64,000 nt of DNA. Origin: a virus. The stretch is taken from IMG/VR virus record IMGVR_UViG_3300045988_124082, one strand, 5' to 3'. This document shows positions 41,345 through 60,192 of this stretch, piece by piece (the first letter of the stretch is position 1; each line of letters begins with the position of its first letter). The position numbers were made by a program, and so were the translations under genes. Below the pieces are notes generated by a model that saw only the letters and a program-made list of their open reading frames with translations, was not told the DNA's origin and made no database searches.

Positions 41345-41354
41345 GAGGTGTAAT

Positions 41355-41681: not shown

Positions 41682-41691
41682 GAGTGGTTAT

Positions 41692-42000
41692 ATGAAGACA
41701 AAAGAAAGGGAAATTCGATTCGAAGATTGCCATGTTGGAGATGTACTTAGGTTAAAAACAAGATGTCCTTTTGTGGAATTTTACCTTACATCTGAAGAAA
41801 TTCCTGTAGCAAAAGAAGATAAGGTCACCGCAACAGTAGTTCACAAAGAAAAAGATATTCTTGATGTAATAGTACATATAAATGGAAAAAGATGTGAACT
41901 ATATTGGGATTGTTGGCTTACAAGTTCTACGGCTTATCGTGAACATAGTTTTCACATTAATGTCGATTCAAAGATTAATCGAAAGAACAACTATTATTAG
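41692..42000 (+). CDS. C-tail-tagged small protein 4 (family B)
   Basis: REIRFEDCHVGDVL. Ends ..NRKNNYY*. Confidence 0.7.
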   Translation: MKTKEREIRFEDCHVGDVLRLKTRCPFVEFYLTSEEIPVAKEDKVTATVVHKEKDILDVIVHINGKRCELYWDCWLTSSTAYREHSFHINVDSKINRKNNYY

Positions 42001-42025
42001 ATATAAGAGAAAGGAAAATAAGACT

Positions 42026-42319
42026 ATGGGATATTTTAAAGTAGGAGATAGAGTAGAAGTTATTAAAAGCCATACCGAGGATTCATGTATTGATCACTAT
42101 GCTCCTGTAGGGCTTAAAGGAACTGTAGTTTATACAGAACCGAGACGTTTGACAAGGCAAATAGCTGTTGAGTTTGATAAGTCTTTTAAAGAAGGACACG
42201 GTTGTGATGGAAAAGTAAGAGGTAAGCGAGGGCAGTGGTATGAATATGATCCACATTCCAATATATATTGGAAAAATTGCTTAAAAATCTTATCCAAAAA
42301 GAAAAACAACTATTACTAA
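42026..42319 (+). CDS. C-tail-tagged small protein 5 (family A)
   Basis: Start moved to MGYFKVGDRVEV behind AAAGGAAAA; the track start 41882 overlaps gene 4. Ends ..KKKNNYY*. Confidence 0.7.
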   Translation: MGYFKVGDRVEVIKSHTEDSCIDHYAPVGLKGTVVYTEPRRLTRQIAVEFDKSFKEGHGCDGKVRGKRGQWYEYDPHSNIYWKNCLKILSKKKNNYY

Positions 42320-42366
42320 AGGTATTTCAAAATCAGTGGAGTGATTTTTGTTAATACATGAAGAAA

Positions 42367-42391
42367 GGCGGGATTTATTCCCGTCTTTTTT
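42367..42391 (+). terminator. rho-independent terminator
   Basis: GGCGGGAtttatTCCCGTC followed by TTTTTT. Confidence 0.65.
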
Positions 42392-42412
42392 CAAAATAGA
42401 AAGGAAATTAAG

Positions 42413-42808
42413 ATGAGCAAATTTAGATATTTAAATGAAGAAGAAACAAAAGTGTTATTACAGGTAACAGAATGGTTAGATAATCATTTCTTTAGTCCAG
42501 AAAATAAATTCGATGAAGAATATTTTGAGAAATACATGAGAGCAATCATTGACAACACAAGAGAAATGTACGAAGCGGTATACATTTGTGTGAACACAAA
42601 ACCTGTAACTGTAATGATTTATGACTATGTGCTTGACATTATTATTACCGATGCACAAGTTGACAAAGAAGATAGAGAGATTGTAGAGATTGCCTTTACA
42701 ACTTGGTTAATAAACATGACAGATAAACCATTTGAAAAGATTTTTGAATGGATGATTGAAGAAAGTTACAGGGGAAGAAAAGGAAGAGAGGATGAAGATA
42801 ATGAATAG
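42413..42808 (+). CDS. hypothetical protein (untagged)
   Basis: 131-aa ORF with RBS GAAAGGAAA. Ends ..REDEDNE. Confidence 0.5.
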   Translation: MSKFRYLNEEETKVLLQVTEWLDNHFFSPENKFDEEYFEKYMRAIIDNTREMYEAVYICVNTKPVTVMIYDYVLDIIITDAQVDKEDREIVEIAFTTWLINMTDKPFEKIFEWMIEESYRGRKGREDEDNE

Positions 42809-42944
42809 ATTTGAAACAGTAATGAAGTTAATTTGTTGGATTGCAGCAGTGACATTGGCATGGATGCACGTTTCAATTGTTGCAGTGATTGCACTTGCAT
42901 TGGTTGGAACTTTTGGAAGCGAGGTTGATTTGAGTGCAAAGTAG
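42801..42944 (+). CDS. small membrane protein (47 aa)
   Basis: MNRFETVMKLICWIAAVTLAWMHVSIVAVIALALVGTF, with two hydrophobic segments. Confidence 0.4.
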   Translation: MNRFETVMKLICWIAAVTLAWMHVSIVAVIALALVGTFGSEVDLSAK

Positions 42945-43266
42945 AGAAACGAGAAGAAAAGTACACTTTGGAGATTGTCATGTAGGCGATGTTTTTGGAA
43001 TAGATAAAGATAGTCCTTATGTACGTAGAAAAAACAGCTTATATGATCTTGAACCATCAGATGTATTAAAGGCAAAAGTTATATATGTAGACAAAGAAGA
43101 TTCCTCCATTCGCATAAAGGCTTATGTAAATAATGAAGAGACTCCAAGATTTTCAGGTTGGCTTTACTCTTTGGTAAACAATTCAGGAATATTACTACAT
43201 AGGTCAGATTTGTTTATTGAGGACAATCTCAGATTCTTGTCAAAGAGAAAGAATAACTACTGGTAA
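42934..43266 (+). CDS. C-tail-tagged small protein 6 (family B)
   Basis: GTG start. KVHFGDCHVGDVF. Ends ..KRKNNYW*. Confidence 0.65.
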   Translation: MQSRETRRKVHFGDCHVGDVFGIDKDSPYVRRKNSLYDLEPSDVLKAKVIYVDKEDSSIRIKAYVNNEETPRFSGWLYSLVNNSGILLHRSDLFIEDNLRFLSKRKNNYW

Positions 43267-43280
43267 AGAGAGGTGTAAGG

Positions 43281-43598
43281 ATGGAAGAGAAAAGAAAAGT
43301 ATGCTTCGATGATTGCGAAGTTGGCATGTTTTTTAGGATCGATAAAGACTGTCCATGGATGTATGACAATGAGTGGATGGATGGTTTTGATACATTGACA
43401 AACGCAGATGAGTTAAAAGTTAAAATTATCGATAAAGATGCTGATGATAGCAGTGTTGAGATAGAACTTTGGGCAGATGGTCAAAAGACACATATAACAG
43501 ATTGGCTCTATCAGTTTGAAGACGATCCAGAAGACAGAATTGGAAATAACCTTGAGTTTATATTAAAGAGGAAAAATAGAAAAAATAACTATTGGTGA
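43281..43598 (+). CDS. C-tail-tagged small protein 7 (family B)
   Basis: KVCFDDCEVGMFF. Ends ..NRKNNYW*. Confidence 0.7.
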   Translation: MEEKRKVCFDDCEVGMFFRIDKDCPWMYDNEWMDGFDTLTNADELKVKIIDKDADDSSVEIELWADGQKTHITDWLYQFEDDPEDRIGNNLEFILKRKNRKNNYW

Positions 43599-43608
43599 GG
43601 TGGTGTAA

Positions 43609-43869
43609 ATGGATAATGAATTAAAAATTGGAATGAAGTTCTTAGAAGTAAAAACCGGAATTGTCTGGAAGCTTACAGATATGAATTTTATACAAGAAGG
43701 GTTTTATATAATAGACAAATCATTGTGTTTTCAAGCTGTACGTATAAATACAGACGAGGATGATGTATGGAGAAGTACATCGTCAATGATACCTAAGACA
43801 ATGCTCGAAAGAAGATTGAAAAAAGGCGAATGGAAACAAATAAACAATAGAAAAAACAATTACTATTGA
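43609..43869 (+). CDS. C-tail-tagged small protein 8 (family D)
   Basis: LKIGMKFLEVKTGIVWKLT. Ends ..NRKNNYY*. Confidence 0.7.
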   Translation: MDNELKIGMKFLEVKTGIVWKLTDMNFIQEGFYIIDKSLCFQAVRINTDEDDVWRSTSSMIPKTMLERRLKKGEWKQINNRKNNYY

Positions 43870-43891
43870 TTGATAGTAGAAAGGACATATT

Positions 43892-45025
43892 ATGGAGGAT
43901 TTAAGATTAGTAACAACAGAAGAATTTAATGGGGTTGATTGCAACTTTTACAAGGCAGATAGTAACATGTGGATGACAAGAGGACAGATTGGTAAAGCTT
44001 TAGGGTATCACAATCCAAGGATTGCAATCGGGAAAATACATACTGCACATAGAGATAGACTTGATCCACTTTCAGTTGATACCAATTTAGTGTCTACTGA
44101 TGGAAAAGAATATTCTACTTATATATATAATGAAAGAGGCATCTTTGAAATCTGTAGATGGTCAAGACAACCAAAAGCAAATGAATTTATGGATTGGGTA
44201 TGGGACATTATAGAAGCATATAGACGTGGAGAATTCCAGAGAAAGCCTAGGGAAACAGCCATTACACCTGTTGAGAAATTCTTAGATGGAATGCAGAATA
44301 TGTTCTTAGAAATGAGAGAAGAGAACAAAATATTCAAAGATACTGTGTTGAAGATTTTAGAATCTCAGCAAGGACAGGAAGTACAAAAACCTGTTGAAAA
44401 ACTTGAAGCTCAAGAGAAAACTGTTAATCAAGTAAAAACAAAACCAGCTGTTAAGTCAGTTGTTAAGATTGAAAACCCTAGATTAGACACTTGGAAGTTC
44501 GAAATTGGTGCTAAAGCAGCCTATATTGTTTTTAATGGAAATGAATATAAAACAAAAGGAAAAGTATTCTCAGCATGTTATTCAAAAATGAAGAATGTGT
44601 ATGGAATTTGTTGGTCACAGGAAAATAAAGAATACAGGAGAGCTTTCGGATTAGAATCTCAGAGAGGTAGATTAAGTACTTTAGATGTTGTATTCAATGA
44701 TGAAAATTTGAAAGACCTGTTTGACAGTATTCTTGATGGAATATATGAAAACACAAAAAGAAAAGCTATAAAGAGAAATACGGGAACCAATCCAGAAAAA
44801 GATTGGCAATATTATAAAGAAAAGATTCAAAAACTTTGTGAGCAAACAGGCAACAAAAGTTTAGGCGGAAGCTCTATTTACTCAGGAATCATTAGAAAGA
44901 TGGATGTAGATTGGAGCAAGTATGAAACAAACAAAAAGAAAACTGAATTAGTTAAAAAATATCCAGAGTTGTTTGCAGAGTTCTCTAAGACAGCGGATAA
45001 ATATTTAGAGGAGAAGTTAAAATGA
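43892..45025 (+). CDS. Bro-N domain protein
   Basis: N-terminal EEFNGVDCNFYKADSNMWMTRGQIGKALGYHNPRIAIGKIHTAHRDRL follows the Bro-N pattern. The C-terminal 250 aa are unassigned. Confidence 0.6.
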   Translation: MEDLRLVTTEEFNGVDCNFYKADSNMWMTRGQIGKALGYHNPRIAIGKIHTAHRDRLDPLSVDTNLVSTDGKEYSTYIYNERGIFEICRWSRQPKANEFMDWVWDIIEAYRRGEFQRKPRETAITPVEKFLDGMQNMFLEMREENKIFKDTVLKILESQQGQEVQKPVEKLEAQEKTVNQVKTKPAVKSVVKIENPRLDTWKFEIGAKAAYIVFNGNEYKTKGKVFSACYSKMKNVYGICWSQENKEYRRAFGLESQRGRLSTLDVVFNDENLKDLFDSILDGIYENTKRKAIKRNTGTNPEKDWQYYKEKIQKLCEQTGNKSLGGSSIYSGIIRKMDVDWSKYETNKKKTELVKKYPELFAEFSKTADKYLEEKLK

Positions 45026-45141
45026 GTATTAAAATTTTAGGACTTCGTCAAGATTGCTACAAAGTAATCATTGATGGAGTCCTTTTTAAATTCCCAACAG
45101 AACAAGAGTTTTTGGAATTCTTAGAGGAGATTGAGATATGA
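45022..45141 (+). CDS. small ORF (39 aa), translationally coupled on both sides
   Basis: Own translation MSIKILGLRQDCYKVIIDGVLFKFPTEQEFLEFLEEIEI*. ATGA overlaps at both ends. Confidence 0.4.
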   Translation: MSIKILGLRQDCYKVIIDGVLFKFPTEQEFLEFLEEIEI

Positions 45142-45416
45142 GTTTTAGATTTGAAGTAGGTCAAGAGCTGGAATTACACAATAACTTGACGGATATGAAA
45201 GTTTACATGAGATCGGGAACGGTTGTTCGTATCTTAAGTAGAAAAACAAGAATGGATCATACACAAGGGGTTGAGAGAAATCGTTACAAGATTGCATATG
45301 AATTTCATACAAGCTTTTTGGAGATTGGAGATGGTTGTTACCACTGTGGAAAAGACTTTATCTGGGAAGAAGATTTAATTAGAGCTGTCGGTCAACGGAA
45401 GAATAATTATTATTAA
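45138..45416 (+). CDS. C-tail-tagged small protein 9 (singleton family E)
   Basis: Ends ..QRKNNYY*. The body is unlike families A-D. Confidence 0.65.
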   Translation: MSFRFEVGQELELHNNLTDMKVYMRSGTVVRILSRKTRMDHTQGVERNRYKIAYEFHTSFLEIGDGCYHCGKDFIWEEDLIRAVGQRKNNYY

Positions 45417-45428
45417 GAGGTGATTAAA

Positions 45429-45698
45429 ATGTGGAAAGTCGGAGATAGAGTCGTAATTATTCAAGATGCTAGAAGAAATTTAGAATCCTTTGTAGGTTTC
45501 AAGGGAACGGTTAACTTTGCAAGTAGAGATGAGATAAGTGTAGTTTTTGACAAATATGTAAACGGTCATGACTTACTAGGGGATTGTAAAAAAGGTTATG
45601 GATGGTTTTTGTCCTCAGACGGAGAGAACGAAAACGAAGCCGAAGCAAATGGAATGAGAGTCAAGAAAATTAACAACAGAAAAAATAATTATTGGTAG
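45429..45698 (+). CDS. C-tail-tagged small protein 10 (family A)
   Basis: MWKVGDRVVI behind GAGGTG. Ends ..NRKNNYW*. Confidence 0.7.
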   Translation: MWKVGDRVVIIQDARRNLESFVGFKGTVNFASRDEISVVFDKYVNGHDLLGDCKKGYGWFLSSDGENENEAEANGMRVKKINNRKNNYW

Positions 45699-45707
45699 GT
45701 GATAGGA

Positions 45708-45980
45708 ATGTGGGAAAAAGGTACAAGAGTTAGAATTATAAAATCAAACAGACTTATGACGCAAGTTGGTATCATGGGCACTGTGGTTTACATACATAAG
45801 GATGGAAATGATCGTTTTATAGTAGAGTTTGACGAACCTATGGATGGGAATTATATGACTACTTTTTGTGATTGCAAACCGAAGTGTTGGTGGTGGTTTG
45901 ATAATGTTCCGGGGAGAGTTGTTGAAACAGATGGTATAACAATTGAAAAAATAGGAAAAAGAAAAAACAATTATTACTAA
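45708..45980 (+). CDS. C-tail-tagged small protein 11 (family A)
   Basis: MWEKGTRVRII. Ends ..KRKNNYY*. Confidence 0.7.
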   Translation: MWEKGTRVRIIKSNRLMTQVGIMGTVVYIHKDGNDRFIVEFDEPMDGNYMTTFCDCKPKCWWWFDNVPGRVVETDGITIEKIGKRKNNYY

Positions 45981-45992
45981 GGCGGTGAGAAC

Positions 45993-46340
45993 ATGTGGGA
46001 AATTGGAGATAGAGTGGCTGTTACAGACTTAGGCAAAGTCTCTCAAGAGAATTATGGAATTGAAATAAAGATTGGATACAAGGGAACTATTATCAACTTT
46101 TTAAAGATTGATGTCCCATGGAATTCTGATGAGATAATTAAATTCTTAGTAGAGTTTGACGAACCCATGGATGGACATGATGGAAATGATTTCGGTAAAA
46201 TAAGTGGGAAATCGGGACACTGTTGGTGGATGCGTGGAAACCAAGATAGTAATTTAATCAAATGGCGAGATAGCCGGGATTGTGAAGCACCATTAATATG
46301 TAAGAAAATCATGAAGAAAAGGAAAAACAATTTTTACTAA
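45993..46340 (+). CDS. C-tail-tagged small protein 12 (family A)
   Basis: MWEIGDRVAV..VEFDEPMDGHDG..GHCWW. Ends ..KRKNNFY*. Confidence 0.7.
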   Translation: MWEIGDRVAVTDLGKVSQENYGIEIKIGYKGTIINFLKIDVPWNSDEIIKFLVEFDEPMDGHDGNDFGKISGKSGHCWWMRGNQDSNLIKWRDSRDCEAPLICKKIMKKRKNNFY

Positions 46341-46986: not shown

Positions 46987-47147
46987 ACATTGTATAGGAT
47001 GACCAAACATTGGTTGTCTTATAGAGTGTAAAAGCTCTAAATTACATATCTAAAATACATAACACTGCAAATTAATGGCTAGGGCAGGATCGTGTGTAAG
47101 AGATACATAGCTACAATAATATTTTATAAAAGAAAAGGAGAAACAAA

Positions 47148-47513
47148 ATGAAAGTAGTAATCGCAGAAAACAGATTAGAGGTAGTAACAGGAATCAAAAA
47201 GGCAGACTTCGACAAACAGGTAACAGACATGACTGTTAAAGATGACAAAGGAAATGTGACATTTAAGTTAAAAGTTGGAGAACAGCCTAACATTTCAGTA
47301 CTTGGTTTAACTTGCAACACAACTGTTGACAAAGAGTTAGCGGTAACAATGATTCTTCCAATGGAAACAGATGTTGAAGAAATCAAAATCAAGTATGGTA
47401 AGGCTTTAGTAGCAGCTGAAAAGAATCTGAAAGTAATTGCTGACAGAATCGTAGCAGATACAGAAGCAGTTGATGGAATCTTTGCAGACACAGAAGAAGC
47501 AACAGAAGCCTAG
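47148..47513 (+). CDS. hypothetical protein, paralogue 1 of 48018..48362
   Basis: 121 aa with strong RBS AAAAGGAGAAAC. About 55% identical by eye to the 114-aa paralogue. Confidence 0.6.
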   Translation: MKVVIAENRLEVVTGIKKADFDKQVTDMTVKDDKGNVTFKLKVGEQPNISVLGLTCNTTVDKELAVTMILPMETDVEEIKIKYGKALVAAEKNLKVIADRIVADTEAVDGIFADTEEATEA

Positions 47514-47569
47514 GAACAGCCTTGAGTAAAGGTAAAACAATATAATCTAATATTAATTCATTCACTTAT

Positions 47570-47596
47570 AGGACGTCTCCCAAGGGCGTCCTTTTT
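47570..47596 (+). terminator. rho-independent terminator
   Basis: AGGACGtctcccaagggCGTCCT followed by TTTT. Confidence 0.65.
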
Positions 47597-47641
47597 AGTT
47601 ACACATTTACATATTCAGGAGATTAAAAGGAGAACAAAATT

Positions 47642-47881
47642 ATGATGATCAATGTAACATTAGCAACAACAGCAGGTAAAAGTCTTGTAACAGTAGAAGG
47701 AAACCAGACTCCATCACAAGTACTTGAAGAGAACAGCGTAGCAACAACAGGAGCTACTGTATCACTCAATATGAGACCACTTGCAGATAATGAAAAAGGT
47801 AAAACTTTTGAAGAATTAGGATGCACAGATGGTGATTCCGTAATGTTATCAGCAGTTGTAAAAGCAGACTCAGCAATGTAG
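47642..47881 (+). CDS. 79-aa ThiS/MoaD/ubiquitin-like (beta-grasp) candidate, copy 1
   Basis: The size and the C-terminal pattern ..LGCTDGDSVMLSAVVKADSAM parallel ThiS ..VQDGDQILLFQVIAGG. No terminal GG. Confidence 0.4.
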   Translation: MMINVTLATTAGKSLVTVEGNQTPSQVLEENSVATTGATVSLNMRPLADNEKGKTFEELGCTDGDSVMLSAVVKADSAM

Positions 47882-48017
47882 TAGTAAATCAAATTAGATA
47901 GTAAATATTGAAAATCATAACGCCATGGGAAGTAATAAATTAGATGGGACAGGATGATTTGAGATTTTACATATAAAGAAACTTAAAAAAATCAATGAAT
48001 TAAAAAGGAGAACAAAC

Positions 48018-48362
48018 ATGAAAGTATCATTAAAAGAAAACGCATTAGAAATCAACACAGAAATCAAAAAAGCTGACTTTGACAAGAAAGTAAGCAACAT
48101 GACAGTAACAAACAAAGATGGTGTACCAACATTTGTTTTACGCTGTGGAAGAGAGGGAGAAATTTCTCAGTTAGGACTTACATGTAACTCTACAATTGAC
48201 AAGAACTTAGCTGTAACAATTGTGTTGCCTCCAGAAACAAAAATGGAAGACATCAAAGTTGAATATGGTAAAGCCCTTGTAAATGCAGAAAAGGGATTAA
48301 AAGTCCTTGCTGGGAGAATTGAAGCCGATACGAAAGCTATTGATGCGATTTTTGCGGAATAG
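48018..48362 (+). CDS. hypothetical protein, paralogue 2 of 47148..47513
   Basis: 114 aa with RBS AAAAGGAGAAC. Confidence 0.6.
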   Translation: MKVSLKENALEINTEIKKADFDKKVSNMTVTNKDGVPTFVLRCGREGEISQLGLTCNSTIDKNLAVTIVLPPETKMEDIKVEYGKALVNAEKGLKVLAGRIEADTKAIDAIFAE

Positions 48363-48466
48363 AAAGTAAAATAATATCTAATGTAATTTCACAACAAACA
48401 GGGACAGTCAACCCAATAAGTCCTACGAGTAACTGTTAACCAAGCAAAATATTTTCTCTTTCGACT

Positions 48467-48510
48467 CAAAAGCTTTGCAGGTAGGGGTTGGACAGCAAAG
48501 CTTTTGTTTT
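48467..48510 (+). terminator. rho-independent terminator
   Basis: CAAAAGCTTTGCaggtaggggttggacaGCAAAGCTTTTG followed by TTTT. Confidence 0.7.
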
Positions 48511-48559
48511 AGTAACTATAGAACACAAGTATTAAAAGGATATAAAGGAGAACAAAATT

Positions 48560-48799
48560 ATGATGATCAATGTAACATTAGCAACAACAGCAGGTAAAAG
48601 TCTTGTAACAGTAGAAGGAAACCAGACTCCAAGTGAAGTGTTAGCTGAAAATAATGTAGCAACAACAGGAGCTACAATCTCTATGAATATGAGACCATTA
48701 AGTGTAGCTGAATTAACTGATACATTTGAAGAGCTTGGATGTAATGATGGTGATTCTATCATGTTATCAGCTGTAGTTAAAGCCGATTCTGCTTTCTAG
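48560..48799 (+). CDS. 79-aa ThiS/MoaD/ubiquitin-like (beta-grasp) candidate, copy 2
   Basis: The first 24 codons and the RBS are identical to copy 1, and the rest has diverged. Ends ..GDSIMLSAVVKADSAF. Confidence 0.4.
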   Translation: MMINVTLATTAGKSLVTVEGNQTPSEVLAENNVATTGATISMNMRPLSVAELTDTFEELGCNDGDSIMLSAVVKADSAF

Positions 48800-48901
48800 T
48801 TCTAGCAGGTAAAGAGAGAAGAACATGAAGAGCGTAGGTGTCATAGCCTACGTTCTTATTTTTTACTTATTAATTATATTCATAAGAAAGGAAAATACAT
48901 T

Positions 48902-50626
48902 ATGGAAGAAAGAAAATTTAAAACAAATGACTACGTGGTAGTAAAGAATTGGGATGAATTGGTTGAAGAATATGGATTGGTTGATCCCGAATCTGTTAGA
49001 GAACAGATGAGGAATGATGAGGATTGTTATTGGTCAGAAGAAGAGATTAATGAATACAATCCAGAAATCATTAATGTTCCATGGGGAGCAAGAAAAGCAA
49101 TGATTGATGAACTTGTAACTATGGGATTGATGAAGGTCAAAGAATATGGAGAAGATGGAAGTGTCCAGCTGGAAAGCGATACTTACATTGACAGTATTAT
49201 CCCAGAAGAGATTTTACAGCCTGTAAGCGAAGATGAGGTTAAGAATTATATCTTTTGGCTTAATAAAAAAGATGATGATTTTGTAATGCAGGACTACGAT
49301 TTTGCTCAAGCAAATGGATTATTAACTTATGTAGGATTGGTCAATGGAAGTATTGATTTTATCGGAGGAAACAAAGGTAATGAATTAATTGCTTATTTCT
49401 ATGCAGCATCAATTTTAAGATCAATTGATTTTAATGAGGGAGTTACAGAATATCTAAGCCATTGTCATGAAGTTAGTGTTCATACATTTGACCATTTTTA
49501 CACTGACAGAAAATCACATTTGCAGATTGTAGCGATAAAAGATGTTTCTGAGGATGGAGAAGAAGAACTTGTTAATATGTGGACAGAAAGAGGCTGGGAA
49601 GAAGTTGAATTCCACAACGATAAAGTTTTTAAGGTGTTTACTCATCCTGAGCAGAAAGGAACCACAATTTTCTTAAATGGAGAAAAAGAAGATTATAAAA
49701 AAGACTTTGAAGCTTATGAACTGATCATGCAGATTGTTAGCCATGTTTATGGAGATACAATGCAGGATGTTTTAGAAGTTGTTAGCAATAGAGATAGATC
49801 AGAAGCTATGAATATGATCCGTGATATTTTCTCAGAAGCGGATAAGCAGTATGTGAAAATCAAAAACAAAATTAATATTGAAAACTTCCTAAAGGTTGCA
49901 TCTAAAGGTCAGCAGAAACATTTAGAACGAGAAGTTCAGAATAATCAGGACAGAGTTAATAGCTATAAAGATAATCTCAGACACTCTCTTAAAACATTAA
50001 GAGAGTCACAAGAAAGACTCTTCGGATATTTACATATGAAAGATGATTCCCAGTTCAATGAAGTAAGAGAAATGTTAAACATGATGGGTGATGATTTAAG
50101 TGATTTTAGGTGTAATCCTAGCGGTGATTGGTTTAGCTTTGCAATCGTTCAGCCATTGTTATATTGGGATGATGATATTTACGAAAGAAACTTTGATGAT
50201 GAATACTTTGAAGAAGAGGCTGAATATGAAAAGACGAAAAAAGTATTCGACAAAATCTTTAAGACAAGAGAATACACTTTGTATCTACAGCAAGCAATAA
50301 TGATTGACTTGGTCAATAATAAACCAGTTGCAATGAGAGATTATAATTATACAAATGATATGTATATTCCTAATCCACATTTCCATGAGTTTAACTGTTG
50401 GGGAGCAAATGAAGCAAATTTAATTGAAGCGATTTCAAACAGAGATTATATGTCAATTTTCAATCTTGTTAGATCAGCTGTCGCTGGAATTTCTTTATAT
50501 GATACTTCTGTAGTAGGAGCTTTCTTTAATTATTGTGAAGACAGATTTACAAATAAAAAATGTCTTAAAGTTCCAGGAAGAGAAGAATTTATTTCATTCA
50601 AAGAAGCAAGAGCATTGGAGGATTAA
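48902..50626 (+). CDS. 574-aa hypothetical protein, first gene of the JAB/E1-like operon
   Basis: The stop lies 3 nt before the JAB gene. Near the C-terminus, IPNPHFHEFNCWGANE loosely resembles an E2 HPN..C active-site region (weak). Confidence 0.5.
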   Translation: MEERKFKTNDYVVVKNWDELVEEYGLVDPESVREQMRNDEDCYWSEEEINEYNPEIINVPWGARKAMIDELVTMGLMKVKEYGEDGSVQLESDTYIDSIIPEEILQPVSEDEVKNYIFWLNKKDDDFVMQDYDFAQANGLLTYVGLVNGSIDFIGGNKGNELIAYFYAASILRSIDFNEGVTEYLSHCHEVSVHTFDHFYTDRKSHLQIVAIKDVSEDGEEELVNMWTERGWEEVEFHNDKVFKVFTHPEQKGTTIFLNGEKEDYKKDFEAYELIMQIVSHVYGDTMQDVLEVVSNRDRSEAMNMIRDIFSEADKQYVKIKNKINIENFLKVASKGQQKHLEREVQNNQDRVNSYKDNLRHSLKTLRESQERLFGYLHMKDDSQFNEVREMLNMMGDDLSDFRCNPSGDWFSFAIVQPLLYWDDDIYERNFDDEYFEEEAEYEKTKKVFDKIFKTREYTLYLQQAIMIDLVNNKPVAMRDYNYTNDMYIPNPHFHEFNCWGANEANLIEAISNRDYMSIFNLVRSAVAGISLYDTSVVGAFFNYCEDRFTNKKCLKVPGREEFISFKEARALED

Positions 50627-50629
50627 AAA

Positions 50630-51595
50630 ATGAGAAAAATTAGAATTGAAGAATTAGATGCACAGAGATTAGTACAAGAAGTGATAGCGAAAGCTATCAC
50701 TTCTATTGGTTTAACCCCAGAAAAATTACAGATGGAAATTAATCCTAATGTAAAACTTAAAGAAGAAGAGAAAATTGAGATTGCTTTTTCAGAAATGGCA
50801 GAAAAGAAAATGTATTATCTCATTCACGAATGTGAAAAAGAAATTGGTTGGCATGGACTTGTCAGTCGAAGCGAAAATGGATTCTATGTAGAAGACATTA
50901 TTGTATTCCCACAGGAAGTTACAGGAGCTACTGTAACATCAGATGATGAGCTATATCCAACTTGGATGCTTAGTCAGCCAGATGAGATTTACAATAAGAT
51001 TAGATTTCATGGACATTCACATGTAAATATGGCAACAAGTCCAAGTGGTGTAGATGATACGTATCAGGAGCAGATTATTCAACAGTTTATGTCTAGTCCA
51101 CTTGATGAAAATAATTTTTACATATTCGGCATTTTCAACAAAAAGGGAAGCTATTGGTTAAATATTTATGACATTTATAACAATAAATTTTATGAGACAG
51201 ATGATATTAGTTATGTTTTTTATCAGTCAGATGAACAGGCATGGGCTAAAGAACAGATTAAAGAGAATGTAAAAGAAGAAGTAGCTGTAAAAACAAGTGG
51301 ATATTATTCTAATGGATATGGTTATAGAGGCGGTGGATACGGAACAGAAGAGCTGTATGATACTTGGAAAAAGAACTATGATAAAAACAAAGGCAAAGAG
51401 AAGCCAAAAAAAGATGAAGCAGAGTTGCGAAAAGAATTAAGTGGAGCAATTATTGCAGATTTAACACCTCCAAAATGGCATAGTAAATGGAGTAAATGTT
51501 TACAGAGGATGATTAGCTGTGATGAAAGTCTTGATGATTTAATTGAAGAGTATTGTATTACTTATCCAGATTATAGTGGAACAAAAAAGAAATAG
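50630..51595 (+). CDS. JAB/MPN+ (JAMM) metallopeptidase with long C-terminal extension
   Basis: Complete JAMM signature: upstream Glu (IHECEKEIGWHG), then HSH-VNMATSP-S-GV-D, which is HxHx7Sx2D. Confidence 0.7.
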   Translation: MRKIRIEELDAQRLVQEVIAKAITSIGLTPEKLQMEINPNVKLKEEEKIEIAFSEMAEKKMYYLIHECEKEIGWHGLVSRSENGFYVEDIIVFPQEVTGATVTSDDELYPTWMLSQPDEIYNKIRFHGHSHVNMATSPSGVDDTYQEQIIQQFMSSPLDENNFYIFGIFNKKGSYWLNIYDIYNNKFYETDDISYVFYQSDEQAWAKEQIKENVKEEVAVKTSGYYSNGYGYRGGGYGTEELYDTWKKNYDKNKGKEKPKKDEAELRKELSGAIIADLTPPKWHSKWSKCLQRMISCDESLDDLIEEYCITYPDYSGTKKK

Positions 51596-51607
51596 AGGAG
51601 GATGATT

Positions 51608-52285
51608 ATGAATACAAGTAAAGTTTTAGAATTTTTTGATGCACAGACATTAGTTAAAAAACCAGTTCATGTAATTGGATGTGGAGCAATTGGCTCAAAT
51701 GTCGCAGAACAGCTTACAAGATTAGGAGTCTCAGTGATTCATCTCTGGGATTACGATCATGTTGAGCCTAAAAATGTAACTAATCAGATGTTCTTTGATG
51801 GGGATATCGGAAAAGCTAAGGTAGATGCAATTGAAAATTTGTGTAAGTCAATTAATCCACAGATTAAAATAATCAAACATGAAAGAGGGATTGATGATCC
51901 ATATATTCTTACAGGATATGTATTCTTATGTGTAGATAATATTGAGCTTAGAAAGAAAATCGTAGAGGCCAATAAGTTAAATCCAAACTGTATTGCGTTC
52001 TTTGATTTTAGAATGAGACTTACAGATGCACAGCATTATTTTGCTGATTGTTCAGTTAAAGAACAGGTTGAAAACTTAATTGGAACCATGAATTTTACCC
52101 ATGAAGAAGCGGCTGCAGCAACTCCTACAAGTGCTTGTGGAGTGGAATTAAGTGTATGCTATACAGTTAAGAATATTGTTTGTTATGGAATTGCAAATTT
52201 TGTTAACTTTTGCCTAGGGAATGAACCAAAACAGATGATTATTACAGATATGAAGACAATGGATGTGACAGTATTCCCTATGTAA
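51608..52285 (+). CDS. ThiF/MoeB/E1-like adenylyltransferase (minimal, about 225 aa)
   Basis: VHVIGCGAIGSNVAEQLTRLGV (GxGxxG Rossmann) followed by LWDYDHVEPKNVTNQMF (DxDxVxxxNxxRQ-like). Confidence 0.7.
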   Translation: MNTSKVLEFFDAQTLVKKPVHVIGCGAIGSNVAEQLTRLGVSVIHLWDYDHVEPKNVTNQMFFDGDIGKAKVDAIENLCKSINPQIKIIKHERGIDDPYILTGYVFLCVDNIELRKKIVEANKLNPNCIAFFDFRMRLTDAQHYFADCSVKEQVENLIGTMNFTHEEAAAATPTSACGVELSVCYTVKNIVCYGIANFVNFCLGNEPKQMIITDMKTMDVTVFPM

Positions 52286-52288
52286 GAG

Positions 52289-52567
52289 GTGATGATCTTG
52301 ATAGAAGAAAAATATAAAGCGGTACCTAAAAATTATAAGGGGATTGTAAGACTTAAGCCAACAATAGCACGTTTCCGCCCTTATTACCATGCGTATGTTA
52401 AGTTGGAGGAGGGCTATCACTATACGGGTAATCCAGATCACACAGTATACGTTGAGTTGTACAAGACTTATCAAGATTTAACAAACAATGGTAGGTGTAT
52501 AAGGGAAGGCCTTATAGAAGAAAGAAGCTTATATGTTCCAAGAGAACGTAAGAATAATTATTGGTAG
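52289..52567 (+). CDS. C-tail-tagged small protein 13 (family C, VPKGYKG..GNPDH)
   Basis: Starts 3 nt after the E1-like stop (GTG; TTG 52298 is also possible). Ends ..ERKNNYW*. Confidence 0.65.
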   Translation: MMILIEEKYKAVPKNYKGIVRLKPTIARFRPYYHAYVKLEEGYHYTGNPDHTVYVELYKTYQDLTNNGRCIREGLIEERSLYVPRERKNNYW

Positions 52568-52575
52568 GTGAGAAT

Positions 52576-52848
52576 ATGTGGGAAAAAGGTACAAGAGTTA
52601 AGATAATAGGGGGAGCAAAAATCGGCTTAATGGGGACAGTGGTTGTTAAGTGCACAGAAACCCCTGTCAATGACATTAGAGATCGCTTCTTAGTAGAGTT
52701 TGACGAATCCATGGGTGGACATAGTGGAAATGGAGCTTATGAAGGAAAGCGGGGACATTGTTGGTGGTTTGATTATTGTTTAGAAAAGGTTACTATCACA
52801 GATGGCATAAGCATTGAGCAAGTCAAAAGGAAAAATAATTTTTACTAG
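52576..52848 (+). CDS. C-tail-tagged small protein 14 (family A)
   Basis: MWEKGTRVKII..VEFDESMGGHSG..GHCWW. Ends ..KRKNNFY*. Confidence 0.7.
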   Translation: MWEKGTRVKIIGGAKIGLMGTVVVKCTETPVNDIRDRFLVEFDESMGGHSGNGAYEGKRGHCWWFDYCLEKVTITDGISIEQVKRKNNFY

Positions 52849-52861
52849 GGGGGGTGATTAG

Positions 52862-53077
52862 ATGTGGGAAGTTGGTGACAGAGTAGTAGTTAGTAGTGCA
52901 TTTAGGCCTAAAGTGAAAGGGACAGTCATTGCTATAGATGCGGAATCTACAATGCCTGTATTGGTTAAAATAGGTGGAATAGGAACAGGTATGTGGTTCT
53001 ATGAAAATGGTGATGATTTAGTTTGGAGTGACATTACTTGCACACGAGTGAAAAAGAGGAAAAACAATTATTATTGA
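52862..53077 (+). CDS. C-tail-tagged small protein 15 (family A, short)
   Basis: MWEVGDRVVV, 71 aa. Ends ..KRKNNYY*. Confidence 0.7.
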   Translation: MWEVGDRVVVSSAFRPKVKGTVIAIDAESTMPVLVKIGGIGTGMWFYENGDDLVWSDITCTRVKKRKNNYY

Positions 53078-53093
53078 GAAAGGATGATGACAG

Positions 53094-53381
53094 GTGTTTA
53101 AGGTTGGAGATAGGATCGTACTAACAGAAGAAAGCCGTCAAAGCTGCAATATATTTCATGAACATCCGGGAGATACTGCAACGGTTATTGGAGTTTCGAA
53201 AGTATCAAGTAGGTCTGATTATGAATGTGTTTTAGAATTTGATAGACATATTGGTGGACATGATGGGTTAACCGATGCCACAGGCAAGAACGGTCATTGT
53301 GTTATCTATTATTTTGATTCAACACAGTGGGATAAGTATTTTAGGAAAATCCAAAGTAAACGTAAGAATAATTATTATTAA
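53094..53381 (+). CDS. C-tail-tagged small protein 16 (family A)
   Basis: GTG start. MFKVGDRIVL..EFDRHIGGHDG..GHCVIY. Ends ..KRKNNYY*. Confidence 0.65.
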   Translation: MFKVGDRIVLTEESRQSCNIFHEHPGDTATVIGVSKVSSRSDYECVLEFDRHIGGHDGLTDATGKNGHCVIYYFDSTQWDKYFRKIQSKRKNNYY

Positions 53382-53396
53382 GAAAGAGGTGATCGT

Positions 53397-53713
53397 ATGC
53401 CAGAGGATGTAAAGTACCGTCCAGTTCCTAAAGGGTATACAGGTGTTTTTAGGCTAAGAGAAGATACGACGTCCTTAGCCAATGAGTTTTATGGAGCATG
53501 GGGCATTATAGACGACAAATTTTTAATCGATGAAGATTATTATAATGAAGAAAATGAATTTAAGGGAGATCCCGATCATGTAATTCGAGTAAGTTTTTAT
53601 CCTAGCCTTTTAGATCTGCAAAGAGGTGAAATCTTATTAGAGAAGTAGGAAGAGTGTCTGGGACAGAAAAGTATTGTTATATTCCTTTCAAAAGAAAAAA
53701 TAATTACTATTAA
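53397..53713 (+). pseudogene. C-tail-tagged family C member 17, frame-disrupted (or frameshift-dependent)
   Basis: Frame 0 stops at 53648 (..RGEILLEK*). The family-like continuation ..LIREVGRVSGTEKYCYIPFKRKNNYY* is open in the -1 frame from about 53630 to 53713. Confidence 0.55.
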
Positions 53714-53728
53714 GAAAGAGGTAATCAA

Positions 53729-54043
53729 ATGGAAAATAATGGTATATATCCTCCAGTACCTAAGGGATACAAGGGTGTTTTTAGAGTTAGACCTGATATG
53801 ATAGGATCAGATAATATGTTCTATGAAGCATATGGTATTACAGGAAAAGGTATTATAGAAGACATTGATTATTTAGAAGGCCAAGGAGAATTTACAGGAA
53901 ATCCACATCATATAATTAAAGCCATTTTTTATCAAACCTATGAAGACTTAAAGAACAGAGAATGTATGATACAAGGAAGGCCTGTTAAAATAAAAGAACA
54001 CTTACTTTACCCCGTGTCAAACAAGAAGAACAATTACTGGTAG
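53729..54043 (+). CDS. C-tail-tagged small protein 18 (family C)
   Basis: YPPVPKGYKGVFRV..GNPHH. Ends ..NKKNNYW*. Confidence 0.7.
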   Translation: MENNGIYPPVPKGYKGVFRVRPDMIGSDNMFYEAYGITGKGIIEDIDYLEGQGEFTGNPHHIIKAIFYQTYEDLKNRECMIQGRPVKIKEHLLYPVSNKKNNYW

Positions 54044-54053
54044 GTGATTTAAG

Positions 54054-54323
54054 ATGATAGACGCAAAAGATATTAAAGAGGGTATGAAAATTAAGTATAA
54101 TGGTTGGGAATGGACTATAACAAAAGTGTTTGCAAAATATAATAATGTCTTGGATCTTCGGAATGATTGTATTAAAAAAATCATTGATCAAGATAGTTCA
54201 TTGATTTGGATTGAAGCATCGAAGAGACGCTTTGTGCCTGAATCTATGACTATGGAGTGGTTCTTTAAAGAACTGAAATATGGAACAATAAAGATTTTAA
54301 ATCGTAAAAATAATTATTATTGA
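54054..54323 (+). CDS. C-tail-tagged small protein 19 (family D)
   Basis: DIKEGMKIKYNGWEWTITK. Ends ..NRKNNYY*. Confidence 0.7.
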   Translation: MIDAKDIKEGMKIKYNGWEWTITKVFAKYNNVLDLRNDCIKKIIDQDSSLIWIEASKRRFVPESMTMEWFFKELKYGTIKILNRKNNYY

Positions 54324-54329
54324 GGTGAT

Positions 54330-54623
54330 GTGATGTATTTAGAAGACATTAAAGTTGGTCAGAAAGTGAACTATCGAGGTCATTCCTACATAATAACTAA
54401 AAATGTTGTAAAGTATCGGGGAATAATTAGACCTTATTATTCTACATATTCGTATATCAAGGAAAGTACAAATTGTCATAGATCACGAATGTATTTTCGA
54501 AGAGTAGAAAATAAAAATGAACCGATTGATGGATTTTGGTTATTATATGACGAGATTGAAGAAAAAATGGATCGAGGGCTTATTAAATTTTTGAACATGT
54601 CAAAGAAAAATAATTATTATTAA
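54330..54623 (+). CDS. C-tail-tagged small protein 20 (family D)
   Basis: DIKVGQKVNYRGHSYIITK. Ends ..SKKNNYY*. Its stop is 15 nt before the RT start. Confidence 0.7.
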   Translation: MMYLEDIKVGQKVNYRGHSYIITKNVVKYRGIIRPYYSTYSYIKESTNCHRSRMYFRRVENKNEPIDGFWLLYDEIEEKMDRGLIKFLNMSKKNNYY

Positions 54624-54638
54624 AGGGGGTGCCACAAA

Positions 54639-55940
54639 GTGAATGGAATCAATAAAAGGAAATTAGAACTGTTTATGGATGATCAGCTATGGAGACAAAA
54701 TATTACACATCAGCAAAGCAAAGGTGTACATAGAGATGTATTAAGAATTGTGTGTGATCCAGAATACAAAGCACGGCTTTTAGGAATGATCTGGGATGGT
54801 AATTACAAAATTGCACCTCCGTATGTAGTAGAAATTCCTAAAGACAATGGAAAAGTAAGAGAAGTGTATGTTAATCAGCCAATTGACAGATTTGTTATGA
54901 CACAAATCAATTATGTTTATATGCAATTATATGGTCATATGATTCATCCAAGATGTGTGTCTTATCAGAAAGGAATTGGAGTTAAAAATATCGTAGATGA
55001 TATTTGTATGGAGCTTAAGAAACATCAAGGAGCTGTCGGGTATAAGGTAGACATTAGTAAGTATTTTGACAGTGTAAGCCGTGAGGTCCTTAATGAAATG
55101 ATTGATAAAATTGATACAGGAAGTCCTATTGATCAGATCGTAAGAGATTATTATATGGATGATTGTATCATTGATCAGAAAGGAAATGTTATTGAGAAAT
55201 ACAAAAGTATGACTCAGGGTTGTGCAGTGTCTACATTCTTTGCCAATTGTGTTTTAAAAGATGTTGATGAAGAGTTAAGCAAGATGGATATTATTTATTA
55301 CAGATATTCAGATGATATCTTGATGGTTGGTAAGGATGCAGATAAGGCTTTGAAGATGTTGGGAGAAATGTTAGAAACGAAAGGACTTACATTAAATCCT
55401 AAAAAGGTAGAAACAGTCAGTACAGATCAATGGTTTACATTCTTAGGAGTGCGAATTAATGGACAGAAAAGAAGTTTTTCTGAGAAGAGCTTAAAGGAAT
55501 TTCAGAAACATATTAGAGAATATGTAAATAAGAAAGCAGGAATTGGTAGCGTAAAAGTTGCAATCAGACAAATTAATAAATATCTGTATTTGAATTTCTT
55601 AAGGAATCCTAATGAGTTTGGTTGGGCTGAGTATTTCTTTAGTATTGTGAATGTCGAAGATGATATTAAGACATTAGATATGTGGATTAAAGATACACTC
55701 AGAGGTTTGTATACTGGTAAGAGAGGAAAAGAACAGATAGGTGGACTAGGTGTAAATAAAGTAACTAATGAATGTGGAGTATTAAGAGGGAAGGGCAACA
55801 AAGTAAGTTCAAATTTACGTAAAACAAGAAGTGATAAAGACATTTTAGAAGAAGCAGGATATATCAGTATGAATGAAATGTATCATCAGTTTAGATATAG
55901 CAAAGAATTGTACAGGGCTTCATTGACGGCTTTATCTTAA
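54639..55940 (+). CDS. reverse transcriptase (stand-alone, no endonuclease or maturase domain recognised)
   Basis: RT motifs in order: IPKDNGKVREV, YKVDISKYFDSV, QGCAVSTFFANCVL, YYRYSDDILMVG (YxDD), LTLNPKKVE, FTFLGVRI. GTG start behind GGGGGTG. Confidence 0.85.
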   Translation: MNGINKRKLELFMDDQLWRQNITHQQSKGVHRDVLRIVCDPEYKARLLGMIWDGNYKIAPPYVVEIPKDNGKVREVYVNQPIDRFVMTQINYVYMQLYGHMIHPRCVSYQKGIGVKNIVDDICMELKKHQGAVGYKVDISKYFDSVSREVLNEMIDKIDTGSPIDQIVRDYYMDDCIIDQKGNVIEKYKSMTQGCAVSTFFANCVLKDVDEELSKMDIIYYRYSDDILMVGKDADKALKMLGEMLETKGLTLNPKKVETVSTDQWFTFLGVRINGQKRSFSEKSLKEFQKHIREYVNKKAGIGSVKVAIRQINKYLYLNFLRNPNEFGWAEYFFSIVNVEDDIKTLDMWIKDTLRGLYTGKRGKEQIGGLGVNKVTNECGVLRGKGNKVSSNLRKTRSDKDILEEAGYISMNEMYHQFRYSKELYRASLTALS

Positions 55941-56459
55941 GTGTAACCTAACACGAGGTACTTATGTGAAATGTTATAAGTCAAATCAGATCCCTAGGAT
56001 ACACGGGTGATTCCATGCATGGTTGATAACCAGCATTCCATCAACCCGTTCCTCCCTGGATCTTATCATCATAAAGGAAATTTAGAAACGTGTTATTAAC
56101 ATGAACATAAGAAAGTTACTATGGACGTTGTATGTGAGACAATGGAATTACATATAAGGCGCGTTGAAGCTGCAGGATGACTGGCAATACATTGACCAAG
56201 TCATCCCTGCAGCTCAACCGCTTTATAATCATAAAAGAATAAAGGAACATAGCATGATTGTGAGCATACAAACAAGCTAACATGGGCTAAACATACGAGA
56301 CGTTGAATCATACATAATAAGGGCACAGCTGCCTTATGCAGCGGGAAATTAGTCTCCTCGACAATAATTTCACCGCTGCCACAGGCGTGCGTGCCCTTAT
56401 TAATCATAAACCAATAGAGAAAACATGTCGCCAATGTAGAGTATGTAGAAAGGAAAATC
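55941..56459 (+). ncRNA. hairpin array 1: three long variable hairpins, each followed by conserved ATCATAAA
   Basis: Hairpins at 55988-56063, 56153-56227 and 56317-56400 (75-84 nt, imperfect, unrelated sequences). ATCATAAA at 56068, 56228 and 56403. RNA status and strand are inferred, not shown. Confidence 0.45.
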
Positions 56460-59397: not shown

Positions 59398-60192
59398 ATG
59401 GCAACAGAGTTTGACAAACGAATGAAAGCTTATGAATGTGTCTCAAGACAGTACTTAACAAGAAGAGTACCAGTTGCAATTAGGGTAGATGGAAAGGCAT
59501 TTCATACATTCACTAGAGGGTTTCAGAAACCATTTGATGAAGTGCTTAGCAACACAATGCAAGCCACAATGATGAAAATGTGTAGACAGATTCAGGGTTG
59601 TGTGTTTGCTTACACACAGAGTGATGAAATTACATTTATTCTTATCGATTATCAGAAGCTAAATTCTGATGGCTGGTTTAACTACCGTACTGATAAGATG
59701 TGTAGCATTGCAGCGAGTATGGCTACTATGGAGTTCAATAAGGCTTTTAGTGCTTTTGTTTATGGATTTAAGGTAAACAAGGGAGAAGACATATCAAGCG
59801 AAGATATGGAAGTGCTTAAGGCCTATGAGAAATCTAAGGAACGTGGAGCTATGTTTGATGCTAGAGCGTTCTCAATTCCAAAAGAAGAAGTCACAAACTT
59901 AATCTATTGGAGACAACAGGATGCTATGAGAAATGCAGTTCAGATGGTTGGACAAGCATTTTATTCTCACAAAGAACTTCAGGGTGTTAATTGTGAAATG
60001 CTTAAAGAAATGTTACTGGCTGATAAGGGAATTGAATGGGATAAGATTCCTGTGAAATACCAGAGAGGCAGTTGTTGTGTCAAGGTTGATGGTGAATGGA
60101 CTATTGACAATAACATTTCTATCTTCAGAGGTAGTGACAGAGAGCAAATTGATAAGCTTGTGTTTGTTGAGAGTGAAGAGGATCAGGAGTGA
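59398..60192 (+). CDS. Thg1-like protein (tRNA-His guanylyltransferase family, 3'-5' nucleotidyl polymerase)
   Basis: N-terminal VPVAIRVDGKAFHTFTRGFQKPFDEVLSNTM..CVFAYTQSDEITFIL matches the Thg1 family core (R.DG+.F..FT..F.KP.D...YxQSDEIS). Confidence 0.75.
   Translation: MATEFDKRMKAYECVSRQYLTRRVPVAIRVDGKAFHTFTRGFQKPFDEVLSNTMQATMMKMCRQIQGCVFAYTQSDEITFILIDYQKLNSDGWFNYRTDKMCSIAASMATMEFNKAFSAFVYGFKVNKGEDISSEDMEVLKAYEKSKERGAMFDARAFSIPKEEVTNLIYWRQQDAMRNAVQMVGQAFYSHKELQGVNCEMLKEMLLADKGIEWDKIPVKYQRGSCCVKVDGEWTIDNNISIFRGSDREQIDKLVFVESEEDQE

Follow-up and report, generated by a model that had tools for sequence, protein, structure and literature searches.

Among prokaryotes, the conjugation of ubiquitin-like proteins (Ubls) has until now been characterised in the hosts, where the Bil, Bub and type II CBASS systems employ it against phages. 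In type I Bub operons (6E.1/DUF6527), which encode BubAB, BubCD and BubE, BubAB is a Ubl-E2 fusion and the JAB-E1 protein BubCD cuts after the terminal Gly (Ye et al. 2024, PMC11601596). On the phage side, UG27, a class 2 UG/Abi reverse transcriptase (RT), has been described in 1447 dereplicated gut-phage genomes, together with a non-coding RNA that contains three long stem-loops and with the associated protein clusters 337 and 346, in which no known domain was recognised; its suggested function was anti-defence or addiction (Mestre et al. 2022, PMC9226505). Here we analyse a phage locus that carries elements of both kinds. It lies in a stretch of 64,000 nucleotides (nt) from the IMG/VR virus record IMGVR_UViG_3300045988_124082, which at its full length is called the window. 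An earlier note on this DNA, made from the sequence alone, had proposed a three-gene operon between positions 48902 and 52285, encoding a protein of 574 amino acids (aa), a JAB peptidase and a minimal E1-like protein. The three open reading frames (ORFs) lie exactly where that note had placed them, but they are the enzymatic core of a larger unit: a six-gene phage module with a structured RNA, which includes a UG27 RT that had not been linked to them. We propose that this module is a phage-encoded system for the maturation and activation, and probably the conjugation, of a Ubl, which works together with the UG27 RT; we assign this reading a rough probability of 0.55.

Gene order of the module and its reverse transcriptase

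For the comparison, 80 IMG/VR loci were retrieved out of 308 matching contigs and 46 were added from GTDB genomes, giving about 125 related loci in all (designated below by L numbers), over which gene order was scored by iterated search with hidden Markov models. The GTDB loci derive nearly all from gut metagenome-assembled genomes (MAGs) of Clostridia and Bacteroidales, to which the isolate Clostridiales Family XIII bacterium PM5-7 is added. Across these gut-phage and gut-MAG loci, the genes follow the order p121, 79-aa Ubl, p574 (the 574-aa protein), JAB, ThiF and UG27 RT; in the neighbourhoods of the JAB homologues this corresponds to proteins of ~120-135 aa, ~78 aa and ~450-630 aa, followed by JAB, ThiF and RT. 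Of the first 85 loci, 74 show this order, and so do most of the 46 from GTDB. It occurs in single copy in 64 loci, 10 further loci have a doubled p121-Ubl pair like that of the window, and the remaining loci show the identical order up to the end of the contig. The p574/JAB and JAB/ThiF gene pairs frequently overlap, and directly 3' of ThiF an RT was detected in 81 loci of the first 85, as in nearly every locus with a long enough contig. In most other clades the spacing between ThiF and RT is 5-400 nt, whereas in the window a clade-specific insertion (52289..54623, + strand), which is outside the conserved module, separates the two genes.

This common order spans very different phages, including genomes of 48-52 kb with an SNF2/AAA_24/DUF669/MCM replication block and contigs of 110-305 kb. 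Since it is conserved across hundreds of loci, chance is ruled out as its cause. The earlier note had considered a copy of such genes on the phage side to be unusual; in fact, the module is present on at least 308 IMG/VR contigs, the p574 family comprises 1207 clusters at 50% identity, and UG27 itself is as widespread as cited above. A megablast search with positions 47000-56000 of the window against the INPHARED phages gave no match. In some loci, a second RT-family ORF was observed near the module (L116, 13838-14881; L117, 15437-16465; L120, 5469-6512).

The RT of the window (54639..55940, + strand) has an intact YSDD motif and matches the PADLOC model RT_UG27 (E = 1.3e-164, model positions 2-419 of 420) and Pfam RVT_1 (5.6e-21). 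It is followed by a structured non-coding element of 519 nt (55941..56459, + strand) with hairpins at approximately 55988-56062, 56153-56227 and 56315-56402, a minimum free energy of -164.6 kcal/mol (z = -7.7 versus shuffled sequences) and 24 base pairs that are maintained by compensatory changes in a seven-sequence alignment of relatives. The octamer AUCAUAAA is present after each hairpin (56068, 56228 and 56403). In L003, a hairpin of unrelated sequence occupies the equivalent position and is also followed by AUCAUAAA, and in the L042 clade the spacer between ThiF and RT ends in the same octamer. This motif was detected only in the clades of the window and of L042, and it was therefore rejected as a universal feature of the module. 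According to these results, the window locus belongs to the UG27 RT systems, and from the strict synteny we presume that the clusters 337, 346 and 336 of Mestre et al. map to p121, Ubl, p574, JAB or ThiF. ThiF, JAB and ubiquitin are never mentioned in that paper (PMC9226505), and no searchable paper ties UG27 to ThiF, to JAB or, in the relevant sense, to ubiquitin; the ubiquitin-like half of the module seems to be previously undescribed.

The two halves could be connected directly by chemistry, if the E1-activated C-terminus of the Ubl were joined to the nucleic acid made by the RT, instead of or in addition to a protein. For example, a Ubl-adenylate or a Ubl-linked nucleotide might serve as primer, so that a covalent Ubl-cDNA conjugate would be formed, with JAB releasing the product. 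We hold this to be the least probable of the explanations considered here; if true, Ubl-cDNA conjugation would be a new chemistry joining ubiquitin-like activation and reverse transcription. The possibility that the RT is itself the substrate of the E1, by analogy with CBASS, was rejected because the C-termini of the RTs are not conserved.

Ubl, peptidase, E1-like enzyme and two orphan families

The p121-Ubl pair is tandemly doubled as one unit in the window clade, and L002 has a single pair. In the window, p121 copy 1 (47148..47513, + strand; 121 aa, 39% identical to its L004 homologue) and Ubl copy 1 (47642..47881, + strand; 79 aa) are followed by p121 copy 2 (48018..48362, + strand; 114 aa, 61% identical to copy 1) and Ubl copy 2 (48560..48799, + strand; 79 aa, 82% identical to copy 1). 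The position of p121, 5' of the Ubl gene, is the same in nearly all complete related loci. Both 79-aa ORFs, which the earlier note had put forward as candidate Ubls, are paralogues within a conserved family, and that assignment survived the profile and conservation tests. When the Ubl was compared with PDB profiles, about 14 of the 18 sub-threshold matches were beta-grasp Ubls or sulfur carriers, the best being SAMP2 (0.05) and ThiS (0.07), and TtuB, DSK2 and ubiquilins were also among them. In addition, one member of the family matched Pfam ThiS (0.0027), and hhalign gave probabilities of 57% for ThiS, 49% for SAMP2 and 19% for ubiquitin. These comparisons point, with moderate confidence, to a beta-grasp fold, probably ThiS-like.

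Only K74, D76 and A78 are invariant in the Ubl family, and they form a C-terminal K-x-D-[N/S/G]-A motif; copy 1 ends in ...VVK74-A-D76-S-A78-M and copy 2 in ...VVKADSAF. Among 82 distinct Ubl sequences, the conserved Ala is the last residue in 27 and is followed by one residue in 35, by two in 12, by three in 4 and by four in 2, while the remaining 2 are fused to p121; the sequence of the extension is variable throughout. The two in-frame Ubl-p121 fusions are independent, one in an IMG/VR locus (L085, 5941-6582) and the other in an Acutalibacteraceae MAG (L130, 6787-7431), and neither locus has a free Ubl gene. At the fusion junction (...NA|AK... or ...NA|AT...), the conserved Ala is followed by residue 2 of p121. 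The variable extension after the Ala and these fusions are the signature of a Ubl precursor, in which cleavage would occur after the conserved Ala. A 205-aa ORF of L094 (2905-3522), located 5' of a normal module, encodes a divergent Ubl-like domain without the K-x-D-x-A end.

For p121 we obtained no match in Pfam or PDB. The family has no invariant residue, and specifically no invariant Cys, Ser or Lys; the Cys of the 'LTCN' motif seen in the window clade is not conserved, and p121 was rejected as a Cys-dependent E2. We read p121 as a partner or target of the Ubl, not as an enzyme.

The JAB gene (50630..51595, + strand) encodes a zinc metallopeptidase of 321 aa. The complete JAMM site noticed in the earlier note (E71...H129-S-H131-x7-S139-x2-D142) is confirmed by an alignment of 36 sequences with identities down to 31%, in which all of these residues are invariant; 199 homologues were detectable. 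The AlphaFold model, with a core pLDDT (per-residue model confidence) of 85-96, was matched by Foldseek to Rpn11 (E = 6.9e-9), CSN5, BubCD and an archaeal (Caldiarchaeum) Rpn11 homologue, and the Citrobacter BubCD showed the lowest root-mean-square deviation among these structural matches (3.7 A). Single-sequence searches with JAB recognised nothing in Pfam, NCBIfam, PHROG, PADLOC or PDB. No Pfam JAB model was significant for the family, and two of the 36 members gave a marginal match to Prok-JAB (0.053). Because single-sequence searches of JAB, p574, Ubl and p121 in these databases gave nothing useful, alignments and a structure were needed. We conclude that the product of 50630-51595 is a genuine JAB/MPN+ peptidase. 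A tail-assembly peptidase of the gpK type was rejected, since JAB has no NlpC/P60 match, its best structural matches are those listed above, and its gene is located in the + strand early/accessory block, outside the context of the tail genes (- strand, 1-35 kb). Most JAB homologues (e.g., those of L031, L027, L041 and L016) have a disordered acidic/aromatic tail (D, E, Y, F, W, G) after the core; in the window and L042 clades, a longer helical C-terminal region takes its place.

The deconjugase-like fold of JAB, the location of the module in the early/accessory region of the phage beside Bro-N, antirepressor-like and SPFH genes, and the anti-defence or addiction role suggested for UG27 (PMC9226505) would all fit a counter-defence function based on mimicry. 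JAB would then strip host conjugates (the ISG15-like conjugates of Bil or the cGAS conjugates of type II CBASS), or the E1 and the Ubl would act as decoys that block conjugation by the host, and the RT would be a mere neighbour. This seems improbable to us. A deconjugase alone would suffice for such a function, whereas six genes, including Ubl and E1, keep a strict order across very different phage families; the Ala end of the Ubl is unlike the Gly ends of host Ubls; and the diversity of the hosts (Clostridia and Bacteroidales) makes a single common host target unlikely.

The ThiF gene (51602..52285, + strand) encodes a minimal ThiF/E1-like adenylation domain; a start at 51608 ('MNTSK') agrees better with the homologues than the one at 51602. 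The product matches PF00899 well above the cut-off (E = 9.6e-22; 77.7 bits, cut-off 28.1), and the family profile matches UBA5 (1.3e-18), MoeB (6e-15), TcdA (3.7e-14) and MccB (1.5e-12), as well as Uba1, ThiF, PaaA and Cap2. The Rossmann motif and the nucleotide-binding stretch that the earlier note had reported are well founded, with G26xGxxG31, the ribose-binding motif D50xD52, K73 and the Mg-binding D112 invariant across the family. The alignment with MoeB by hhalign had a probability of 98.4% and paired D112 with D130 of MoeB. An invariant Asn61, followed by Gln62, is found at the position of the arginine finger R73 of MoeB (DxDxVxxSNLxRQ). On the basis of its sequence, the 227-aa product belongs to the ThiF/MoeB/E1 adenylation-domain superfamily and is not a dehydrogenase.

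Members of the ThiF family are 221-236 aa long. The matches to Uba1 and UBA6 span only residues ~10-121, and the C-terminal half gave no significant alignment to solved E1s. A canonical E1 of the Uba1/BilD type was rejected, since the IAD-AAD architecture, the inserted catalytic-Cys domain and the UFD are all missing. The earlier note was right that no separate catalytic-Cys domain exists, but it overlooked Cys179, which is invariant within a P-x-S-A-C motif in 17 diverse sequences and which would be located at the end of the expected crossover loop. No literature was found on PDB 9egb-d, a 264-aa ThiF-type protein.

The profile matches to TcdA, MccB and PaaA, the Asn that replaces the canonical Arg finger and the presence of a structured RNA in the module would also be in line with a ThiF that does not act on the Ubl. 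In an ATP-dependent reaction like those of TcdA (the tRNA ct6A dehydratase), MccB or PaaA, it could instead modify a peptide C-terminus or the UG27 RNA, with the 79-aa protein and p121 as structural or RNA-binding accessories; the arrays of proteins with a shared C-terminal tail that flank the module in five clades favour the same idea. Nevertheless, it would leave the invariant end of the Ubl with its variable extension, as well as the universal presence of JAB, without explanation. Moreover, many clades bear the module without tag arrays, and the array tails are wholly different between clades while ThiF is 41-79% identical. We judge such a role to be very unlikely.

A coiled coil occupies the centre of the p574 protein (48902..50626, + strand), and its conserved C-terminal domain bears the signature P492-H493-x5-C499-x-G501. 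Its N-terminal ~130 aa are confined to the window clade; a phmmer comparison of the N-terminal domain with the array proteins gave no match, and a common origin is unsupported. H493 and C499 are the sole invariant residues among 106 diverse homologues and are located inside the sequence NPHFHEFNCWG. The E2-like motif that the earlier note had noticed at this position is real, and the His-x5-Cys order resembles the HPN...Cys of E2s; the E2 fold, in contrast, is unsupported, given that hhalign against four eukaryotic E2s yielded a probability of 0.07%. No match was obtained in Pfam or PADLOC, and the PDB profiles gave coiled-coil noise only. A homologue search with a 30-sequence alignment retrieved six close relatives only. 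Modelling from five close sequences reached a pLDDT of only 55.6, and at this poor quality the lack of any Foldseek match at E<0.1 is uninformative. In this poor model, the order of strands and helices (beta-beta-[alpha-alpha]-beta-beta-PNPH-Cys-alpha-alpha-alpha) would be compatible with a UBC-like core, which is a lead, not evidence. A relationship with BubE/DUF6527 was rejected, since there is no Pfam match and the signature is His-x5-Cys versus Ser...His in a beta-sandwich. We regard p574 as a candidate Cys/His transferase or peptidase.

The failure to find an E2 is one of several observations that would suit a sulfur-carrier pathway. The classical sulfur-carrier operon has the same trio, in which a ThiF that stands alone and a JAB accompany a small protein of beta-grasp fold (PMC1779556); ThiS is the best hhalign partner of the Ubl; the best NCBIfam matches of the ThiF protein are ThiS adenylyltransferases (NF006395, 1.1e-22, below its cut-off); and the invariant Cys of p574 could hold a persulfide. 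The Ubl would then be of the ThiS/MoaD/TtuB type, and after its adenylation by ThiF it would be converted to a thiocarboxylate. The acceptor of the sulfur would be either a small molecule or a nucleic acid (DNA, a phage tRNA, or the RNA or cDNA of the RT), and JAB would only mature or recycle the carrier, as QbsD and Mec+ do. We consider this role unlikely, if less so than the other alternatives: no member of the Ubl family has a Gly-Gly end, and the conserved module lacks a rhodanese, a cysteine desulfurase, a PP-loop ATPase and a ThiG/MoaE-like acceptor. Furthermore, the Ubl-p121 fusions and the co-duplication of both genes indicate a protein partner, one without a conserved catalytic residue.

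Proposed pathway, tagged arrays and other features of the window

Each of these alternatives accounts for less of the conserved anatomy of the module than does a phage-encoded pathway of Ubl activation, which could proceed as follows. The 79-aa Ubl would be made with 0-4 residues past the K-x-D-[N/S/G]-Ala motif, or as the N-terminal part of a polyprotein with p121 in the two phages that have the fusion, and JAB would trim it, freeing the carboxylate of Ala78. The ThiF-like E1 would then adenylate this carboxylate with ATP, and it may load the Ubl onto Cys179. Subsequently, the Ubl would be handed to a target, possibly via Cys499 and His493 of p574, with p121 as the best candidate for the partner or target. 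JAB probably also reverses the Ubl linkage as a deconjugase, given that phages with a Ubl that requires no trimming have kept it. Finally, the Ubl pathway would cooperate during infection with the UG27 RT and the RNA of the latter, and one of the two, pathway or RT, would control the other.

Several observations weigh against this proposal. Neither a conjugation target nor a fold of the E2 or E3 type was found; p121 lacks any invariant residue, and searches with p574 revealed no homology beyond its own family. The matches that suggest the beta-grasp fold of the Ubl are all sub-threshold, its terminus is Ala and not Gly-Gly, and the Ubl-p121 fusions could also reflect a Ubl that functions uncleaved, as a domain. 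With regard to the E1, the Asn at the place of the MoeB Arg73 finger counts against its predicted catalytic competence, and the crossover-loop placement of Cys179 is one that we infer, because only the N-terminal ~120 residues align to solved E1s. The link to the RT, in turn, is drawn from synteny alone.

If the proposal holds, the module represents phage-encoded Ubl machinery that is common in gut viromes and synteny-locked with an RT and a structured RNA, and a mechanistic coupling of reverse transcription and Ubl modification is suggested as possible. The recognition of the UG27 accessory genes as Ubl, E1 and JAB opens what had been an 'RT plus unknown genes' locus to direct biochemistry, and p574 and p121 become candidates for new types of transferase or adaptor.

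The arrays of small ORFs that flank the module were also analysed. The ending [RK]KNN[YF][YW] is shared by 19 ORFs of the window; they lie in the regions 40730-46340 and 52289-54623 (+ strand), the second of which is the insertion between ThiF and RT, with eight ORFs bearing this ending and one untagged paralogue. The tail is borne by at least six unrelated domains. Conservation acts on its protein sequence while the codons vary synonymously, so that a DNA-level repeat was rejected as its origin. The earlier note had described the operon as embedded in this RKNNYY array; the array is no general part of the module, since the tail is restricted to the window clade, and four other module clades have arrays with tails of their own, namely EC.C[DE]SLL (10 ORFs), L.EIL (6), ..ALL (5) and L.EFI (5). 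The array loci outside the window are L042 (5727-6290 and 12878-18613), L038, L029 and L128. As five unrelated clades have arrays and many carry the module without any, the link between array and module is recurrent but not obligatory. The untagged ORF of the insertion (53397-53648, + strand; 83 aa) seems to be a paralogue of 52289-52567 and 53729-54043 that stops early; the three have in common the N-terminal motif Y/K-.-PVPKGY.GVFR.

The window is phage DNA: genes for a large terminase, a portal and a tape-measure protein lie in the - strand block (1-35 kb), and the + strand block (36-64 kb) contains small early/accessory genes; seven tRNA genes are present. In the + strand block, a Thg1-like 3'-5' nucleotidyltransferase (59398-60192, + strand; PF04446, 9.3e-32) is encoded ~3.5 kb 3' of the RT. 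It is kept in the window clade (L001) and is followed by an antirepressor-like gene (P22_AR_N/ORF6C) and the gene of an SPFH protein. On the - strand, a full-length ROOL RNA (27357-27968; Rfam RF03087, 305 bits) is located inside the phage tRNA cluster (27026-28474), and a group I intron (24072-24404; RF00028, 62.5 bits) lies between or overlaps the ORFs 23197-23844 and 24367-25386. The terminase-like ORF 21654-22928 covers only part of the TerL profile, and the packaging genes may for this reason be split. An element of 150 nt at 62140-62289 (+ strand) matches the Rfam tRNA model (43.7 bits) and was not called by ARAGORN; possibly it is a tRNA that contains an intron or a long insertion.

Comparison with known systems

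Several described systems resemble parts of the module. Like the PRTRC loci of plasmids and integrative and conjugative elements, it combines a ThiF-family protein on a mobile element with small uncharacterised proteins. A PRTRC system was rejected, since neither ParB nor the PRTRC A-F proteins are present and the ThiF protein scores 34.1 bits against TIGR03736, far below its cut-off of 144.75. With the sulfur-carrier systems CysO/MoeZ/Mec+, QbsE/QbsC/QbsD and ThiS-ThiF, the module shares a small protein that is probably a beta-grasp, a stand-alone ThiF-type enzyme and a JAB that would remove residues behind the conserved C-terminus; those carriers, however, end in Gly-Gly and are encoded in biosynthetic operons with sulfurtransferases and acceptors, and neither feature is found in the module.

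Bil and type II CBASS resemble the module more loosely than Bub does, in having a Ubl or a Ubl-like C-terminus, the adenylation chemistry of an E1 and a JAB deconjugase, the last two being predicted for the module. In CBASS, the conjugation machinery regulates a nucleotidyltransferase, which offers a possible analogy to the RT of the module. Both, in contrast, serve bacteria as defence against phages; the E1 of Bil, BilD, is large and has IAD, AAD and CYS domains, and BilB and Cap2 have clear E2 domains. The module was rejected as a Bil system because it has no IAD-AAD-CYS E1 and no recognisable E2. Type II CBASS was rejected as well, given that the locus has no CD-NTase and that the E1-E2 models of PADLOC match only the Rossmann part of the ThiF protein (residues ~14-100).

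The closest architecture is that of type I Bub. In both cases a JAB is encoded directly 5' of a minimal, homodimer-type E1, the two being fused in Bub and adjacent, often overlapping genes in the module. The Ubl can form an N-terminal fusion with a partner of ~130 aa (BubAB in one case, L085 and L130 in the other), with release at the conserved last residue, which is predicted for the module, the E1 is devoid of a canonical Cys domain, and an extra protein carries a two-residue catalytic signature. BubCD, moreover, is among both the structural matches of JAB and the sequence matches of ThiF. In contrast, Bub occurs in bacteria in association with defence regulators and not with an RT or RNA, and its Ubl ends in Gly. 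BubB can be recognised as a UBC fold and has an invariant Ser, but p121 is devoid of invariant residues; where the DUF6527 protein BubE carries a Ser-His dyad, p574 has His-x5-Cys; and the invariant Cys179 of the module E1 is replaced by Tyr in BubCD. Classification as a type I Bub system was rejected, since no DUF6527 match was obtained, JAB and E1 are encoded by separate genes, and fusions of the Ubl with its partner occur in only two loci.

With the published UG27 systems, finally, the module has in common that it is encoded by phages of the gut Bacillota and Bacteroidota viromes, with a non-coding region of three stem-loops by the RT and co-conserved accessory genes. The difference is that the clusters associated with UG27 were called domain-less (PMC9226505), whereas the accessory genes of this locus encode an E1-like protein, a JAMM peptidase, a Ubl with a C-terminus that is probably processed and two orphan families. 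What is new in this locus is the proposed phage-encoded Ubl/E1/JAB pathway, with a Ubl that ends in Ala, two orphan families and an obligate coupling, by synteny, to an RT and a structured RNA.

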